Part shown: positions 1 through 5,367 of the stretch, piece after piece | Layout: every line of letters starts with the position of its first letter | Position numbering within the stretch: the stretch's first letter is position 1 | From: an archaeon | Lineage (GTDB): Archaea; Iainarchaeota; Iainarchaeia; Iainarchaeales; CSSED10-239 | Direction of reading: 5' to 3' | Assembly: GCA_037147375.1 (NCBI GenBank) | Contig: JBAWVI010000065.1 | Location: 1 to 5,367, forward strand | Length of the DNA stretch: 5,367 nucleotides | Program-made: the position numbers and the translations under genes | The notes under the pieces: generated by a model | Seen by the model: the letters and a program-made list of their open reading frames with translations, nothing else | Told to the model about the DNA's origin: nothing | Database searches by the model: none

Positions 1-1793
1 TCAAGTATCATTCCATGTAAAGAAATATGCTTAAATGGTGCCTTATCAAATGCAATTGTTGAACAAATTAATTGTGAATTCCACCACCCTCTTATTTGAT
101 CGCTTCCTTCAAAGTTAATGTCTGGAGGCCAATATTGATTGAACTTGTCTTTGTTATCTGGGTAACCCAAAGATGCCCAAGATGCAATTCCTGAATCAAA
201 CCAAACATCAAATATTTCTGGTATTCTTTTTGCGTTCCCACCACATGAGCATTTGTAAGTTATATTATCGATGTATGGTTTATGAATATCCATTTCTAAA
301 TCAAGAGATGGTACTCTTTCTTTTAATTCTTTAAGTGAACCAAACACTTCTATTTTTTCACATTTATCACATTTCCAAATTGGAATTGGTATTCCCCAAT
401 ATCTTGCTCTTGAGATTGGCCAATCAGAAATTGAATTTAACCAATCATTGAATCTATCTTTTGCCCAAGTAGGATACCAAGAAACTTCTTTTTCATTTAT
501 TTCTTTTAATCTTTCCTTCATGTCTTCTGTTTTTAAGAACCATTGAGGGAGAGCAACTTGTAAGAGAGGAGAATGACATCTCCAACAAACTGGGTAAGCA
601 TGCTTAACTTTTCTTTTTCCAAGGAGATTTCCTTTTTCTCCTAGATAATTAATTATAAAAGGATCAAGCTCTTTTACTTTTTCTCCCTTATGTGATTGAA
701 TTGTTTCATCATAAACTCCAGAAATTGTTACTGGACAATATGCAGGTATATTATTTTCATGACCTACTGCATAATCTTCCTTACCATGACCAGGAGCACA
801 ATGAACAAGTCCTGTTCCTTCTTCTAGATGAACAAATCTTGGACTTGAAACTATTTTATAACTTCTTTTTTTATAATCATCAGAGATGTTTATCCATTCT
901 TCAAAAAGTGGTTTATATTTTTTTCCAACTAAATCAGTACCTTTGTATTCATCTCCAAGTAAATAATCATCTTTCCAATTAAGCTCATTAATTATTTTAT
1001 CAACTAAATCTTTTGCAACAACATACTTCTTTCCTGAATGTATTAATTCAACATATGTGTATGATGGATTAATCATTATACCCATGTTTGCTGGAAGAGT
1101 CCATGGAGTTGTTGTCCAAATCACAAAATATAGATTATCGTTATCAAGAGATTGGATAGCAACATAGATTGAAGTATCTGTTAAATCTTGATGTTCGATT
1201 TCATTAAATGAAACTGAGGTTTCACAAGAAGGGCAAACATGAACTGGGTACTTGCCATGATGTAACATTCCTTTATCTGATGCTTTTTTAAATGTCCACC
1301 ATCCTGTCTCCATGTACTTATTATCAAGTGTTCTATAAGGATGCTTCCAATCCATCCATTGTCCAAGATTTTCTATTTCTTTTGACATATCATCAATATG
1401 TTCTGTTGCAAACTTCTTACATTCAACTATAAATTTTTCAACACCAAATTTTTCAATATCTTCTTTTGATTTTAAAGAATATTTAATTTGAACCTTTCTT
1501 TCAATTGGAACACCATGAGTATCAAACCCAGGAGTGTCTAAGACCTTGTAACCTGTTTGTCTATGATACCTAATTACAATATCTTTCAATATTCTATTAA
1601 AAGTTGTTCCAAGGTGTACATGCCCTGAGGCATATGGAGGACCATCAATAAAGTAATAATGTTTTTTAGATTCCTTGCTTCTTACTTTTTCAGGAATTCC
1701 TTCCTTTGTCCAAAGCTTTTTAATTTCTTTTTCAGTTGCATAAGAATATTGTGTGTTTTCTTTGTTTGTGCTTTCGGTTTCTGTTGGTACCAT
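1..1793 (-). CDS. ileS: Isoleucyl-tRNA synthetase, N-terminal ~597 aa (3' end lies beyond position 1)
   Basis: Hand translation from ATG (complement of 1791-1793) is open to the window edge: MVPTETESTNKENTQYSYATEKEIKKLWTKEGIPEKVRSKESKKHYYFIDGPPYASGHVHLGTTFNRILKD...TPGFDTHGVPIERKV...WTTTPWTLPAN...HCAPGHGKEDY...CWRCHSPL...DWPISRARYWGIPIPIW...FDVWFDSG...FEGSDQIRGWWNSQ. These are the class I HIGH region, the IleRS-type editing-domain motif WTTTPWTLPAN, and the IleRS motifs ISR.RYWG and EGSDQ.RGW. Absent from the ORF track only because no stop falls in the window. A purine-rich GGGGG lies 8 nt upstream of the ATG. Confidence 0.93.
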   Translation of the reverse strand, partial: MVPTETESTNKENTQYSYATEKEIKKLWTKEGIPEKVRSKESKKHYYFIDGPPYASGHVHLGTTFNRILKDIVIRYHRQTGYKVLDTPGFDTHGVPIERKVQIKYSLKSKEDIEKFGVEKFIVECKKFATEHIDDMSKEIENLGQWMDWKHPYRTLDNKYMETGWWTFKKASDKGMLHHGKYPVHVCPSCETSVSFNEIEHQDLTDTSIYVAIQSLDNDNLYFVIWTTTPWTLPANMGIMINPSYTYVELIHSGKKYVVAKDLVDKIINELNWKDDYLLGDEYKGTDLVGKKYKPLFEEWINISDDYKKRSYKIVSSPRFVHLEEGTGLVHCAPGHGKEDYAVGHENNIPAYCPVTISGVYDETIQSHKGEKVKELDPFIINYLGEKGNLLGKRKVKHAYPVCWRCHSPLLQVALPQWFLKTEDMKERLKEINEKEVSWYPTWAKDRFNDWLNSISDWPISRARYWGIPIPIWKCDKCEKIEVFGSLKELKERVPSLDLEMDIHKPYIDNITYKCSCGGNAKRIPEIFDVWFDSGIASWASLGYPDNKDKFNQYWPPDINFEGSDQIRGWWNSQLICSTIAFDKAPFKHISLHGMIL

Positions 1794-1900: not shown

Positions 1901-2098
1901 GGCTACAATTATATAATTATAATTGATATAATAGAAATTGATGTTATAGTGTTTACACTAATCTTATTTGAAAATAAATTAGATTTATTTATTTGGTTCA
2001 TATTTAATCAAAGATTTCGTGTTCTTGTTATTATATAAATATATATAACTAAATATATTTAAAAACAGTAGGGAAGAAACTATTGGGCGTCAACCTCA

Positions 2099-2118
2099 TA
2101 AAAAGCAATTGCTTTTTA
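2099..2118. terminator. 20-nt perfect palindrome with flanking T/A runs; possible terminator downstream of tRNA-Ile
   Basis: TAAAAAGCAATTGCTTTTTA is its own reverse complement. On the minus strand it lies ~48 nt past the tRNA 3' end and ends in TTTTT, matching oligo-T termination signals. Confidence 0.35.
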
Positions 2119-2165
2119 GGATCCTGAAAACCCCTTGATTTTCATGAGACCGAAACCGGTTGAAG

Positions 2166-2240
2166 TGGGAATGGCAGGATTTGAACCTGCGACCCTTGGT
2201 GTATAAGACCAATGCTCTAACCAGGCTAAGCTACACTCCC
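2166..2240 (-). tRNA. tRNA-Ile, anticodon UAU (decodes AUA)
   Basis: Minus strand folds by hand into a 75-nt cloverleaf: GGGAGTG TA GCTT AGCCTGGTTA GAGC A TTGGT CTTATAC ACCAA GGGTC GCAGG TTCAAAT CCTGC CATTCCC A. Acceptor stem is 7 bp (one G-U), D stem 4 bp, anticodon stem 5 bp, T stem 5 bp with a TTCAAAT loop, discriminator A. The anticodon loop C-U-UAU-A-C gives anticodon UAU. No CCA is encoded. Confidence 0.9.
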
Positions 2241-2267
2241 ATAGATAAATAGAAGAAATGATCTTTG

Positions 2268-2275
2268 AAATAAAA
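2268..2275 (-). promoter_or_regulatory. Candidate TATA box for the tRNA gene
   Basis: Minus strand TTTTATTT is centred ~30 nt upstream of the mature tRNA 5' end. Judged on resemblance only. Confidence 0.25.
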
Positions 2276-2288
2276 TCATGTGGATTAG

Positions 2289-2582
2289 TTATTGCTTTTC
2301 AGAAAATTCTCCAAACCTTCCTAAATTAACTCTTAATTCTTTTTTGAATTCAGAGGAATAAAGGTTAGTGAAAGAATAGCTCTTACCAACAATAAGCTTC
2401 TCAATTGAAGCATCCCATAATGTTAGATAGATTGTGCCTGTATCATCTCCTACTTTTGCTTCACAGACTTTGTGTTCAACATTATCAAGCCTTGAAGTTA
2501 CAGATCTAAGTGGTGTTTTTTCTAAAATTTCACCAACAATATCGATCTTTTTTTGGTATGGTCTAATTTCCTTAATCTTCAT
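2289..2582 (-). CDS. Single OB-fold nucleic-acid-binding protein (SSB/RPA-like, hSSB1/SOSS-B-like layout)
   Basis: 97-aa ORF. The pattern IKEIRP..KKIDIVGEILEK....V.......HKVCEAKVGDDTGTIYLTLWD..IEKL.VGKSY.F.N.Y...F.....VNLGRFGE matches the one-OB ssDNA-binding layout: variable beta strands, then V.D.TG.I.L.LWD, then G....L.N......F.G...L..G. AGGAG lies immediately upstream (ggaaggagatATG). Confidence 0.6.
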   Translation of the reverse strand: MKIKEIRPYQKKIDIVGEILEKTPLRSVTSRLDNVEHKVCEAKVGDDTGTIYLTLWDASIEKLIVGKSYSFTNLYSSEFKKELRVNLGRFGEFSEKQ

Positions 2583-2653
2583 ATCTCCTTCCTATTTACT
2601 AGTAGTGATATAAGTAAATAAGATACGCAAAGGTATTTATACTTAATTATTTT

Positions 2654-2878
2654 TTATTCGAGAGGAAAAAGGAACCAAACCAAGTATTTATTTGTTTTAA
2701 AATTAGGTGTTTCATCTACTGTTTCAAGATGAAGTTCAATTGCTTCTTTAATGTTTGTTAATAGTTCTGTAAGTGTTTCTGCATATGTGTAACAGCCAGG
2801 AAGTACAGGAACAGATGCATAATATTGTTTAGTTTCATTATCAATTTCAATAACTACATCAAATGATTTATGGTCCAT
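2654..2878 (-). CDS. HicB-like / UPF0150 family protein (antitoxin-type fold), no HicA partner
   Basis: 74-aa ORF. FDVVIEIDNETKQYYASVPVLPGCYTYAETLTELLTNIKEAIELHLE matches the HicB N-terminal/UPF0150 signature (Y.A.VP.LPGC...G.T.EEA..N.KEAIE..LE). GGTGA lies 7 nt upstream of the ATG. Confidence 0.7.
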   Translation of the reverse strand: MDHKSFDVVIEIDNETKQYYASVPVLPGCYTYAETLTELLTNIKEAIELHLETVDETPNFKTNKYLVWFLFPLE

Positions 2879-2889
2879 TTTTATTTCAC

Positions 2890-2911
2890 CATATATATTA
2901 AGATATATATG
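2890..2911. repeat. (AT)n-based 9-bp perfect hairpin/palindrome just upstream of the HicB-like gene
   Basis: CATATATAT taag ATATATATG. It overlaps the SD region and may double as a TATA-like element. Confidence 0.4.
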
Positions 2912-3005
2912 ATTTTAAAAAACTATTATTTTTAAATAAACATAGAATTTCGAAGGAATTTAGGTTTATAAATGGTTTCATTGGTAGTGAACACTATCCT
3001 ATAAT

Positions 3006-4070
3006 TTAATGAGGCCTTACTTTATTAAAATTAGAATTGTAAGATATAAAAAGAAAATTAAAGCTAAATAACATCTTACTTGTAATCCTATATGCATTTG
3101 CGTGCATTGTGTAACCTAAGTAACTATTTATTGATGCAAATAGTCTATACATATAAATCTTATTTGCAAGATAGAGATGAGAAAGATGTATTGTTCTTTT
3201 TTTAAATTTAATAAGATTTGATTTCCTTAATCTAACAAATAATGAGAATATTTTGTATCCCACAAAATCAACTCCATCTTTTATTAAATAAATATTTGTT
3301 TTTCTTTTAGGTATCTCAAGTAAAAGCTTAATTTTAAGAAAACGCTTAATCTTTGTTTTATACGTGTGTAATTCTTTCTTTGAACTTGAAAGTATTATGA
3401 AATCATCAACGTATCTATAATAGTATTTTACTCTAAGTTTATGCTTAATAAATTTATCAAATTCATTTAGATAGATGTTTGCAAACAACTGGCTAGTTAA
3501 GTTTCCAATTGGTATGCCTTTGTTTTCTCCAAAATCAGAATTATCACTATCAACCAGTAAGGTTATAAGATCACATACTTTCTTATCCTTGATTCTTTTA
3601 AATAATATTTGTTTAAGAATAGTGTGATCAATGGTTGGAAAATATTTTTTCACATCACATTTCAATGCATATCCGTGTTTAGCAAACGTATTTTGAACTG
3701 CTTTTTTGATAGTGATTAATCCTTTATGTGTTCCTTTGTTTTTCCTACAAGCAAAGGAATTATTAATAAAGGTTTTATCAAAAATAGGTTCAATTAGATT
3801 GCATAATGCATGTTGAACAATTCTATTTCTAAACGGAAGTGCTTTAATAATTCTTTTTTTAGGTTCAAAAATAGTAAAGCTTCTATATTCTGGTACCTCA
3901 TATTTTCCTAAAATTAGTTCTTCTTGCAAAGCAAACAAGTTTTTTTCAAGATTCATAGAAAAAATCAGAACCTCGATTGAAGATGGCTTTGCTTTTCTTG
4001 CTTTTTTGTATGCAAGGGATAAATTTTTGAAAGAAACTAATTTCTCCCAAAAATTAGTGTGTGATTTCAT
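3006..4070 (-). CDS. Reverse transcriptase, diversity-generating retroelement (DGR) type
   Basis: 354-aa ORF with RT motifs in order: EPKKRIIKALPFRNRIVQHAL (motifs 1-2), LKCDVKKYFPTIDH (motif A), GIPIGNLTSQLFANIYLNEFD (motif B region; IGNLTSQ at 3489-3509 is the DGR-RT hallmark [I/L]G...SQ that replaces the QG..SP of group II intron RTs), YYRYVDDFIIL (YVDD at 3402-3413), DGVDFVGYKI, and the C-terminal SYLGYTMHANAYR typical of DGR RTs. There is no maturase/endonuclease extension. A TR-like element lies upstream on the same strand. Confidence 0.88.
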   Translation of the reverse strand: MKSHTNFWEKLVSFKNLSLAYKKARKAKPSSIEVLIFSMNLEKNLFALQEELILGKYEVPEYRSFTIFEPKKRIIKALPFRNRIVQHALCNLIEPIFDKTFINNSFACRKNKGTHKGLITIKKAVQNTFAKHGYALKCDVKKYFPTIDHTILKQILFKRIKDKKVCDLITLLVDSDNSDFGENKGIPIGNLTSQLFANIYLNEFDKFIKHKLRVKYYYRYVDDFIILSSSKKELHTYKTKIKRFLKIKLLLEIPKRKTNIYLIKDGVDFVGYKIFSLFVRLRKSNLIKFKKRTIHLSHLYLANKIYMYRLFASINSYLGYTMHANAYRITSKMLFSFNFLFISYNSNFNKVRPH

Positions 4071-4077
4071 GTGTTTC

Positions 4078-4149
4078 AGTAATTCTTTTGTATGATAATT
4101 ATTTATTGGTTATGAAAGTTCATAAAAGAATTACTAAATCATAACCAAT
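4078..4149 (-). ncRNA. Two interleaved perfect helices (pseudoknot topology) in the TR-RT spacer, ending 8 nt upstream of the RT start codon
   Basis: Plus-strand coordinates: AGTAATTCTTTT (4078-4089) is the exact reverse complement of AAAAGAATTACT (4124-4135), 12 bp. ATTGGTTATGA (4105-4115) is the exact reverse complement of TCATAACCAAT (4139-4149), 11 bp. The order B1-A1-B2-A2 means both helices can coexist only as an H-type pseudoknot; otherwise they are mutually exclusive alternatives. Confidence 0.5.
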
Positions 4150-4196
4150 GATATTTTGTTATTTGGCGTTCTTCTGTTGTTTGATATTGATTAACC

Positions 4197-4223
4197 AACC
4201 AGGCAAATTTCTTTGCAACCAGG
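4197..4223 (-). repeat. Direct 7-mer repeat flanking a small GAAA-tetraloop hairpin in the spacer
   Basis: Minus strand reads CCTGGTT-GCAAA-GAAA-TTTGC-CTGGTTGG. AACCAGG occurs at 4197-4203 and 4217-4223 (plus strand). The 5-bp stem GCAAA/TTTGC (4203-4216) closes a GNRA loop. Confidence 0.35.
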
Positions 4224-4337
4224 AAAATATACTGATGTAGTCAACTTGAATATACATTCTTTCTTGTGTTTAAGATAAAACTAAAACTTATCCTTTCCTT
4301 TCTTTAAAAAGTACATGAACACAAAAAACTCTACAGT

Positions 4338-4365
4338 TACTATCTTTTCACTTGAAAAGATAGTA
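4338..4365 (-). repeat. Perfect 12-bp stem, 4-nt loop hairpin immediately 3' of the TR
   Basis: TACTATCTTTTC (4338-4349), actt, GAAAAGATAGTA (4354-4365). The arms are exact reverse complements. On the minus strand it begins ~7 nt after the A-free GC-rich TR end (..GGCTTTCGTTGCGTCGT). Confidence 0.7.
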
Positions 4366-4371
4366 GAGACT

Positions 4372-4518
4372 ACGACGCAACGAAAGCCGATGTTGTTGTT
4401 CGTGTTACCAGGGACGTTGTTCAAGTTCAAAGCCAACAATCCTGCGTTCGTTTCATTGTTCCAATTGCCACCACGCAAGAACGAAGAACCTCGAAGAACC
4501 GACACACAGCAGAAAACA
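4372..4518 (-). repeat. DGR template repeat (TR); boundaries approximate because no VR is available to align
   Basis: A GC-rich island in an AT-rich background. The minus-strand frame reads ..VLRGSSFLRGGNWNNETNAGLLALNLNNVPGNTNNNIGFRCVV, resembling the C-terminal CLec/FGE-type variable region of DGR target proteins (LRGGSW...NNNIGFR). There are 11 AAY (Asn) codons within 25 codons (N14-N38 of the track ORF). The frame is closed upstream by TAG (complement of 4536-4538), so it is not the end of a long target gene. It lies ~300 nt upstream of the RT on the same strand. Confidence 0.78.
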
Positions 4519-4538
4519 TATACGTCAGTATATTCCTA

Positions 4539-4557
4539 ACTTGTAATACTTACAAGT
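4539..4557. repeat. Perfect 8-bp hairpin with 3-nt loop at the 5' side of the TR
   Basis: ACTTGTAA tac TTACAAGT. The arms are exact reverse complements. Confidence 0.55.
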
Positions 4558-4582
4558 CAAAATAGATTATGAACAGTTACTT

Positions 4583-4590
4583 ATATATAC
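4583..4590 (-). promoter_or_regulatory. Candidate TATA box for the TR-RT transcript
   Basis: Minus strand ggTATATATAag. A start ~25 nt downstream would fall at about 4555-4560, at the 5' hairpin that precedes the TR. Judged on resemblance only. Confidence 0.3.
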
Positions 4591-4616
4591 CTTATTCTAT
4601 AACTAAAATCCAATTA

Positions 4617-4676
4617 AATCGTTCGATACCAACGAACAGTTTAGCTATTAATCGTTCGATGCCATCGAACGATTTA
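4617..4676. promoter_or_regulatory. Two ~27-nt direct repeats, each with internal dyad symmetry (candidate operator pair) in the divergent DGR/ATPase intergenic region
   Basis: Copy 1 is AAATCGTTCGATACCAACGAACAGTTT (4617-4643). Copy 2 is TTAATCGTTCGATGCCATCGAACGATTTA (4648-4676). Copy 2 holds a perfect 11-bp palindrome AATCGTTCGAT-gcc-ATCGAACGATT (4650-4674); copy 1 keeps only GTTCG/CGAAC. A TTATTAAT box (4684-4691) sits ~20-27 nt before the ATPase ATG, which suggests a leaderless mRNA. Confidence 0.45.
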
Positions 4677-4710
4677 AAAACCTTATTAATCATAATATAT
4701 TAGAAAATAT

Positions 4711-5367
4711 ATGATATCTAAAGAAACATTAAAAGATATACTTTTAGATCAAAAAGAGTATATATTAAGTGAAATAAAATACGTTGACAGAGATATAAAT
4801 TTAGATGAATATATTAACAATAACTTAGTTACAATTATTTGTGGAGTTAGAAGATGTGGTAAATCCACATTATTAAGAATATTTTTAAATAAAATAATTA
4901 AAAACAACCAAAATATTACTTATTTATATTGTGATTTTAGTGATGAACGCCTAAATAAATTTGAAATAGATGATTTTCAAAAGCTATTTGAAATATTTTT
5001 AGAAACATATAAAGATGGAAAGAAATATTTCTTTTTTGATGAAATACAATCTATAAATGGATGGGAAAAGTTTGCAAATAGAATGTATGAAAAAGAAAAT
5101 GCTAAACTATTTATCACTGGGTCCAATAAATCACTATTACGATCAGACACATCAACAGTACTAACTGGAAGACAAAGATTATTAGAATTATATCCTTTTT
5201 CTTTTAGAGAATTTTTAAAAATAAAACCAAACAACTTTAATATTTTAAATCTTACAACGAAAGAAAGAATGAAGTTAAGTAATTATTTTGAAGAATACTT
5301 TCAAATTACTGGATTTCCATATCCTTTAGAAATAAAAGACAAAAGAACCTTGCAAGAATATTTTAAT
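4711..5367 (+). CDS. AAA+ superfamily ATPase, COG1373-like (AAA_14 domain, normally followed by DUF4143); N-terminal 219 aa, continues past the window end
   Basis: Hand translation: MISKETLKDILLDQKEYILSEIKYVDRDINLDEYINNNLVTIICGVRRCGKSTLLRIFLNK...KKYFFFDEIQSINGWEKFANRMYEKENAKLFITGSNKSLL...LTGRQRLLELYPFSFREFL. Walker A is GVRRCGKST (4843-4869), Walker B is FFFDEIQ, and ITGS and LTGR...L.PFSF.EF are characteristic of this family. An in-frame TAA at 4693-4695 makes 4711 the first possible start. Absent from the ORF track because no stop falls in the window. Confidence 0.8.
   Translation, partial: MISKETLKDILLDQKEYILSEIKYVDRDINLDEYINNNLVTIICGVRRCGKSTLLRIFLNKIIKNNQNITYLYCDFSDERLNKFEIDDFQKLFEIFLETYKDGKKYFFFDEIQSINGWEKFANRMYEKENAKLFITGSNKSLLRSDTSTVLTGRQRLLELYPFSFREFLKIKPNNFNILNLTTKERMKLSNYFEEYFQITGFPYPLEIKDKRTLQEYFN

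Follow-up and report, generated by a model that had tools for sequence, protein, structure and literature searches.

The window analysed here, a complete NCBI contig of 5,367 bp, very probably contains the 3′ half of a canonical and apparently active diversity-generating retroelement (DGR) that a DPANN-type archaeon carries in its chromosome. The element has a reverse transcriptase (RT) of the DGR family, a template repeat (TR) whose cognate variable repeats (VRs) on other contigs differ from it specifically at adenines, VRs that differ from one sample to another, an avd gene and covarying RNA helices. Read along the minus strand, the window runs from an ATPase gene on the opposite strand, in which the contig ends, through an intergenic region, a GC-rich island full of asparagine codons, a spacer of about 300 nt and the RT gene to the genes for a HicB-like antitoxin, an SSB/RPA-like protein, tRNA-Ile and IleS (Table 1). 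Numbers beginning with L denote other contigs and loci.

Reverse transcriptase, template repeat and variable repeats

The RT open reading frame (ORF) carries IGNLTSQ at 3489-3509, YVDD at 3402-3413 and the C-terminal motif SYLGYTMHANAYR at 3087-3125, all on the minus strand; an earlier reading of this DNA made from its letters alone (hereafter the sequence-only reading) had described a 354-aa RT with these two motifs and a DGR-like C-terminus, and the coordinates it gave were exact. The best relative of the RT in the PDB is 8ub7 chain A (E 1e-53, 186 bits, residues 2-295 aligned), which, judging by the numbering of K29, F66, R74 and I76, is bRT, the Bordetella phage RT of Handa et al.; the next RT class in the same search scored 79 bits, and group II and retron-type RTs came at E ~1e-20. 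The template and deoxynucleotide (dNTP) contact residues of bRT have been reported (Handa et al., PMC6182149; bioRxiv 10.1101/2023.10.23.563531), and in our alignment the bRT residues K29, F66, R74, I76, D138, I181, G182, Q187 and D215/216 are all conserved in the window RT. The protein also matches PHROG 1423 (E 8e-118). Motif 4 of the form [I/L/V]GxxxSQ, together with bRT as the closest solved relative, identifies the RT, as far as sequence can tell, as one of the DGR type.

The source annotations call the protein 'reverse transcriptase/maturase family' or 'retron-type', the best NCBIfam model is the group II RT/maturase TIGR04416, and PADLOC lists models of defence-associated RTs (DRTs), all of which could be taken to mean that the RT is of another class (group II intron, retron or DRT/UG) and that the asparagine-rich island is a coincidental or pseudogenised gene fragment. 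We give this reading next to no credence. NCBIfam includes no DGR model, and the scores lie far under the family cut-offs: 144.7 bits against 300 for TIGR04416, which covers the RT part only, 51 against 235 for retron St85, 73 against 200 for Drt3a and 54 against 390 for Drt2, while the PADLOC DRT models score under the generic RT model of PADLOC itself. RTs of these classes have the palm/fingers fold and YxDD in common with the window RT, but the latter falls under every family cut-off, has no cognate noncoding RNA (Rfam found no retron RNA in the window and no intron RNA, the latter even at E up to 1) and has no maturase or endonuclease domain. Moreover, an RT of another class cannot account for the adenine-specific TR/VR pairs described below; with these pairs, and with bRT so far ahead of the best non-DGR RT, the DGR class assigned in the sequence-only reading stands.

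A scan of GTDB genomes with the RT alignment returned 79 loci, nearly all of them in Woesearchaeota, Pacearchaeota, Nanoarchaeota or other DPANN metagenome-assembled genomes; the host of the window DGR is a DPANN-type archaeon as well. At 51 of the 79 loci self-BLAST found an RT-adjacent repeat pair with at least 80% of the mismatches on the adenines of one copy. The Nanoarchaeota genome SCGC AAA011-G17 is among the 79 (41% identity), a single-cell genome that was among the first in which archaeal DGRs were described (Paul et al. 2015, PMC4372165).

The GC-rich island had been proposed to be a TR rather than a gene, and it is confirmed as such by identical TR copies and cognate VRs on other contigs. 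It lies on the RT strand at a measured TR-to-RT distance of 297 nt, where about 300 nt had been estimated, and its core has 48% GC against 29% for the window. The segment that is repeated elsewhere is 4368-4482, and not the 4372-4518 first proposed. The abundance of asparagine codons holds, with a corrected count: 11 AAY codons fall in the 33 codons from RGGNW to FRC, whereas the 25 codons from W to I hold 10 and not 11. Similarly, the in-frame stop that was thought to close the island is real in that there are stops on both sides of the frame, a TAG at 4536-4538 upstream and a TAG at 4281-4283 downstream, but the frame is not closed directly after FRC; it runs on for 31 codons to give an open frame of 85 codons, within which an ORF of 74 aa starts from a GTG at 4505.

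The 115-nt core is 100% identical in L018 and L020-L027, and the TR is identical in 12 contigs. A repeat search of the window found no second copy of the TR that could be a VR. A protein search with the TR-encoded peptide returned short TR-like ORFs of other DGRs and no target proteins; the relatives L007-L011 were reached through it. The TR pattern with each A degenerated to N had 0 matches among GTDB genomes, which implies that the species is not among the GTDB representatives; when JGI metagenomes were scanned with the island's 3′ portion, its adenines likewise all turned into N, eight loci came up, and the lookup of a 95%-identical RT (P0138) gave eight more.

The VRs come from contigs of a sister strain whose TR is 100% identical to that of the window. 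None of the 85 non-adenine positions of the TR is changed in the VRs of L020 and L023 and one is changed in each of L022 and L013, against 18, 19, 16 and 16, respectively, of the 30 adenines; L024 and L018 have partial VR copies at their contig ends. Over these six VR copies TR adenines account for 81 of the 84 TR-VR substitutions (A->G 34, A->T 29, A->C 18), and pairwise comparison of the VRs gives 15-21 differing sites, of which at most one is not a TR adenine. The sequence-only reading had proposed a search for adenine-restricted TR/VR pairs and had named the lack of any such match, together with an RT outside the DGR clade, as evidence against a DGR; cognate VRs with mismatches nearly confined to TR adenines exist. 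The differences among samples at TR-adenine sites indicate ongoing diversification in natural populations, and the element thus offers an archaeal DGR with natural signs of that process, in the form of identical TRs and differing VRs across samples.

In L023 the target gene (2039-3673, 544 aa) has its VR at 3553-3667, 2.56 kb upstream of the TR. The VR makes up the last 40 codons of the target ORF, the stop stands two codons after it, and the protein ends in ...GFRCVVVP*. Pfam finds Laminin_G_3 and a faint FGE-sulfatase match in this target, and a weak FGE-sulfatase match (E 1.7e-7) in that of L017; a sequence search of the PDB gave no match for the target. PHROG had 0 matches for the three genes upstream of the target, and LamG-type matches only for the neighbours in L013, so that no sign of a viral origin of the target neighbourhood was found in these searches.

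TR/VR homology ends at GTCGTAGTC. A GC hairpin conserved in several lineages, GCAACCC-GUAA-GGGUUGC with GUAA as its loop, stands about 65 nt 3′ of the VR and not adjacent to it. The 3′ flank of the VR (L023:3671-3760; L017:1341-1425; also L108 and L109) consists of four to five short UCUG-containing repeats, a second TR-end motif GTCGTCGTAGT and then this hairpin. L013 has a different continuation: the VR and 60 nt of its flank are common to L013:1-2330, L018:11667-11749 and L023:3411-3725 and are 93-100% identical to the cassette copy, L013 then breaks directly after the second GTCGTCGTAGT motif, so that the GC hairpin is omitted, and a collagen-like 172-aa gene, a Laminin_G_3 gene of 248 aa with PHROG virion-protein matches and a 99-aa membrane protein follow. 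L013 may represent a second target context or a chimera.

Structure of the spacer RNA

RNA elements were compared in ten lineages that make up the subclade of the window (the window itself, L009, L017, L028 and L107-L112). The relatives of the window among them have 57-81% identical RTs, the spacers between TR and RT are 250-300 nt long, and A-biased TR/VR pairs were present in each case where the contig includes the target. When the ten spacers were aligned with MAFFT, the 3′ arms came out misaligned and RNAalifold returned no structure from them, and we used folding of each lineage and a hand-registered mini-alignment in its place. The structured spacer that the sequence-only reading had suggested is recovered in this way and consists of a stem-loop after the TR, a duplex between TR and spacer, a covarying duplex between upstream and downstream strands, and a terminal hairpin.

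The first of these elements, SL1, is followed by a U-run at 4322-4328. A hairpin of its type stands 5-9 nt after the end of TR/VR homology in 10/10 lineages, with unrelated stem sequences and, within the window group, with compensatory changes. Its position and shape would fit the Avd-binding stem-loop just downstream of the TR in the RNA studied by Handa et al. Further into the spacer, the GACUAC of the conserved spacer motif is complementary to the 3′ end of the TR, GUAGUC (4368-4373), and the resulting duplex is found in every lineage, where lineage-specific extensions such as UUUCC/GGAAA or UUCCCA/UGGGAA preserve the pairing. We propose, by analogy with the Bordetella system, that GACUAC/GUAGUC may be the template:primer duplex and the priming site.

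The long-range duplex, formed by the spacer and a strand upstream of the TR, has about 15 bp in every lineage examined (RNAduplex), and in 10/10 lineages it is stronger than 97-99.7% of dinucleotide shuffles. These shuffles were used instead of a matrix of cognate against non-cognate duplex energies, which is not diagnostic in AT-rich sequence. In the hand-registered alignment of its 9-bp core, for which the register of the upstream strand was chosen from the best duplex, 93% of the cells are paired as against 66% in shuffles, and slid controls gave 22-50%. Both partners vary in eight of the nine pairs, and the covariation score was attained in 0/500 shuffles.

The remaining elements lie towards the RT. 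The small hairpin and the GCC(A/G)AAA motif after it resemble the stem-loop and the adenosines that come after it within the DGR RNA of Handa et al. The terminal hairpin is present in 10/10 lineages, with stems of 9-11 bp that differ in sequence and covary, the same UAGUA loop start, and z from -1.2 to -3.7; in L111 it is kept upstream of an inserted PIN gene pair. DGR RNA elements have been predicted in 207 of 278 DGRs, some of them from Nanoarchaeota and the Candidate Phyla Radiation (CPR) (Handa et al., PMC6182149; bioRxiv 10.1101/2023.10.23.563531), and the covariation seen here means that RNA elements of the Bordetella phage particle have been kept in a DPANN subclade. The long spacer sets this subclade apart from the DPANN relatives in GTDB (L029-L106): in those with a detected TR/VR pair the TR mostly ends about 25-45 nt before the RT start, and spacer-type RNA elements would therefore have to overlap the RT coding sequence.

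We propose that the mechanism of the window DGR is the known one, with transcript ends, priming nucleotide, protein-RNA contacts and retrohoming presumed to follow the DGR of Bordetella phage BPP-1. An RNA some 430 nt long, from about 4539 to about 4106, would fold with one helix between the spacer and the strand upstream of the TR and another between the TR 3′ end, GUAGUC, and the GACUAC of the invariant motif, while the post-TR stem-loop and the terminal hairpin would bind Avd/RT. The RT would then cis-prime from the spacer, copy the TR and misincorporate opposite adenines, and the cDNA would replace the VR of the target gene, whereby up to ~11 asparagine codons and other A-containing codons of the putative ligand-binding C-terminus could be recoded. 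The ~430-nt RNA and three proteins, RT, Avd and the second small protein described below, are a set that could be reconstituted.

Table 1. Coordinates of genes and predicted RNA elements in the window (5,367 bp)
Feature	Position	Strand	Remarks
Upstream duplex strand UUAGGAAUAUACUGA	4525-4539	-	42 nt upstream of TR; pairs with 4219-4235
TR core	4368-4482	-	115 nt, 30 adenines; encodes FLRGGNWNNETNAGLLALNLNNVPGNTNNNIGFRCVVV
Stem-loop SL1	4329-4368	-	directly 3′ of TR; inner stem CUAUCUUUUC / GAAAAGAUAG, loop AAGU
Spacer motif GACUACAU	4235-4242	-	ACUACAU (4235-4241) invariant in ten lineages
Spacer duplex strand UCAGUAUAUUUUCCUGG	4219-4235	-	17 nt directly after ACUACAU motif; pairs with 4525-4539
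Small hairpin GCAAAGAAAUUUGC	4203-4216	-	followed by variable hairpin region; from listings of ten lineages, by eye
Adenosine-rich GCC(A/G)AAA motif	4162-4175	-	conserved by eye, ten lineages
Terminal hairpin UGGUUAUGA ... UCAUAACCA	4106-4148	-	loop motif UAGUA; 36 nt before RT start codon
RT gene, 354 aa	3006-4070	-	Pfam RVT_1 E 5e-25
ATPase gene, partial, 5′ part	4711-5367	+	219/423 codons; Pfam AAA_14 E 2e-35
HicB-like antitoxin gene	2654-2878	-	
OB-fold SSB/RPA-like gene	2289-2582	-	
tRNA-Ile(UAU)	2165-2240	-	sole Rfam match in window
ileS, 5′ part	3-1793	-	

The complete cassette and the state of the window strain

The sequence-only reading described the DGR as very small and without avd, which proved wrong. 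In the sister strain (L023) the order is target gene with VR, 135-aa gene, 112-aa bAvd, AAA_14/DUF4143 ATPase on the opposite strand, TR, spacer, RT, HicB and SSB. The bAvd (Pfam PF22296, E 5.6e-21; PHROG 'Avd protein of DGR', E 6e-23) is encoded outside the window, on L012 of the window strain and on L018 and L020-L026 of the sister strain, where avd and a second small gene are found upstream of the ATPase gene. L012 belongs to the same assembly as one of the contigs with exactly the window RT, is 99.9% identical to window 4369-5367 (999-nt overlap) and also covers the whole 423-aa ATPase gene, avd and the last part of the 135-aa gene, which puts avd of the window strain about 0.7 kb past the contig end. 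The compact, avd-less look is thus an artefact of truncation, the contig ending 0.6 kb into the ATPase gene. The truncated ATPase, used as a query for DNA past the contig end, brought up the window's own partial protein only, the next match being 48% identical. The two strains have RTs ~94-95% identical and an avd/ATPase region of 93% nucleotide identity. For scans this carries a caution: since the TR/VR repeat interrupts assembly, a DGR that looks 'avd-less, minimal' on a short metagenomic contig can be an artefact.

The second small gene, of 126-140 aa, precedes avd (L018:11188-11595, minus strand), has the motif GYNKY..(E/D)DKA..Y..AR and is present wherever the region upstream of avd is on the contig (L017, L018 and L108-L112), with 37-42% identity between distant lineages. 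We considered the 135-aa protein as an Avd paralogue and rejected this: Pfam PF05635 scored 31.9 bits against a cut-off of 33.8, hhalign to the Avd alignment gave a probability of 0.6%, and PDB matches were weak. Two avd genes have been found in 1 of 372 DGRs (Wu et al. 2018, PMC5758913). We take the 126-140-aa protein for a conserved partner, probably a helical bundle.

The ATPase gene, full-length in L012 and L018 (L018:9503-10774), occupies the gap between avd and TR. It could be a functional accessory factor of the DGR, since two lineages have an opposite-strand P-loop ATPase in this gap, and of different families at that: AAA_14/DUF4143 in the window lineage, and an ATPase_2/DUF234 protein at the same place in L008/L009. 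We consider this unlikely. L017 and L107-L112 have no ATPase, yet A-biased TR/VR pairs are present in L017 and L108-L112 (no VR is on L107); L111 has the PIN gene pair instead and in another position, between spacer and RT. In addition, the window ATPase matches a stand-alone candidate defence family, PADLOC PDC-S01 (E 3.5e-110), and comes with palindromes that other lineages do not have. It is probably a passenger and not a DGR component, and the extra genes in the cassettes of other lineages look like passengers as well.

The reading of the window as half of an active DGR has to be weighed against several observations. No VR, avd or target gene is inside the window; the window strain's own VR-bearing gene was not recovered among the contigs found, the complete cassettes being those of the sister strain; three of the 84 TR-VR differences fall outside adenines, as one recurrent T->G change (GTC->GGC) in three VRs; the C-type-lectin fold of the target has the weak Pfam FGE-sulfatase matches as its sole basis; and the junction on L012 described below means that an RT-less or rearranged copy may coexist in the window strain. 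All of these weigh against that reading. One could envision that in the window strain the TR and RT are an orphan or decaying remnant, with the cassette rearranged and diversification of the target ended: L012, which is of this strain, has unrelated DNA after the TR in place of spacer and RT, cognate VRs were recovered for the sister strain only, and in a related lineage (L007 and L008) the RT is broken into ORFs of 173 and 130 aa. However, the RT of the window is not truncated and keeps every catalytic residue, its TR, spacer and RNA elements are intact and match those of the sister strain, with its diversified VRs, exactly or nearly so, avd is intact in L012, and a repeat elsewhere in the same samples would fit with contigs breaking at the TR. 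Thus a remnant appears highly improbable, and an active DGR is the reading we prefer.

The broken RTs lie on two JGI contigs, L007:582-1647 and L008:3118-4183, and both lack the catalytic region; in L009, of the same lineage and another sample, the RT gene is intact (354 aa). The split RTs of L007/L008 are decaying copies in one lineage.

The junction on L012 (9385-9410, corresponding to window 4368) joins an adenine-intact TR and 12 nt of VR-type 3′ flank (FRCVVVP*) to unrelated DNA, beyond which are genes for rpL7Ae/S28e/L24e/aIF5B. Five of the six listed contigs with exactly the window RT end at window 4323-4423, in or just past the TR, as expected if a repeat elsewhere breaks the assembly. 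Three of the contigs with the window RT end exactly 55 nt (two SPAdes-style) or 30 nt (one Logan) past 4369, at 4423, 4423 and 4398 in L001, L004 and L005. In these three assemblies the distances are k or k-1 nt for what we take to be the k-mer sizes of the assemblers, which suggests that reads from several samples contain an alternative junction. The L012 junction may reflect a second copy, an RT-less haplotype or an assembly artefact. The junctions of L012 and L013 both lie just 3′ of CGTCGTAGT, the motif with which the spacer primer strand pairs. It is decidedly doubtful, if conceivable, that the adenine-intact TR, along with 2 kb or more of the DNA upstream of it (ATPase and avd), exists at a second junction in the same populations, and that parts of the cassette beyond the VR information are moved or duplicated by the retroelement or by recombination at its priming/homing motif. 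A 52-nt likeness of the L012 DNA after the TR to DNA after the RT in L007/L008 was discarded as merely AT-rich, promoter-like sequence.

Relation to known DGRs and surroundings of the locus

The closest well-described system is the DGR of Bordetella phage BPP-1 (mtd-avd-TR-brt; PDB 8ub7 series). The RTs can be aligned over about 290 residues with the same template and dNTP contact residues, and both systems have bAvd, adenine-specific TR/VR differences and a VR at the C-terminus of the target; the GC hairpin downstream of the VR is a candidate counterpart of that in BPP-1. At the level of RNA, they have in common a stem-loop just 3′ of the TR and a duplex between the TR 3′ end and the spacer (compare bRT TR 117-129 : Sp 47-56), and the duplex of 4525-4539 with 4219-4235 is comparable to the 'cPRT Stop' duplex of BPP-1. 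On the other hand, the window DGR is archaeal and chromosomal, stands beside ileS/tRNA-Ile and has a spacer of ~300 nt, and its lineage has the 126-140-aa gene before avd and an ATPase between avd and TR. The VR hairpin, which is adjacent in BPP-1, stands in the window lineage ~65 nt after the VR, behind the UCUG-type repeats and the second GTCGTCGTAGT, and the target is a LamG + FGE-like protein in place of Mtd.

The statement in the sequence-only reading that DGRs are known in DPANN and CPR genomes agrees with the literature (Paul et al. 2015, PMC4372165; the 'CPR set' of Wu et al. 2018, PMC5758913; Roux et al. 2021, PMC8144416). The window DGR resembles these in host group, in the target-avd-TR-RT architecture and, putatively, in having orphan targets of the FGE or C-type lectin (CLec) type. 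DGRs of such archaea, their CLec/FGE-type targets and the RNA elements are already published, and the window adds a member and leaves the knowledge of DGRs unchanged; of modest interest are the long-spacer subclade, its conserved second small gene and its tolerance of inserted genes.

The locus adjoins ileS and tRNA-Ile, among housekeeping genes, as had been noted from the sequence, and no phage context was detected for it. In every contig of the window lineage the HicB-like and OB-fold SSB genes stand between RT and tRNA-Ile; the HicB-like gene (2654-2878) has no HicA partner within the window. The tRNA-Ile has the anticodon UAU and not CAU. In most archaea the CAU anticodon of tRNA-Ile is agmatidine-modified, and tRNA-Ile with UAU is a trait reported for Nanoarchaeum and Korarchaeum; the anticodon fits a DPANN host. 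After the tRNA-Ile there is a 30-nt palindrome (2095-2148). Two neighbouring near-perfect palindromes, AATCGTTCGAT-GGC-ATCGAACGATT and a related copy, lie at 4614-4677, between the start of the ATPase gene and the promoter region of the TR; they are missing in lineages without the window-type ATPase and could be an operator or an insertion scar.

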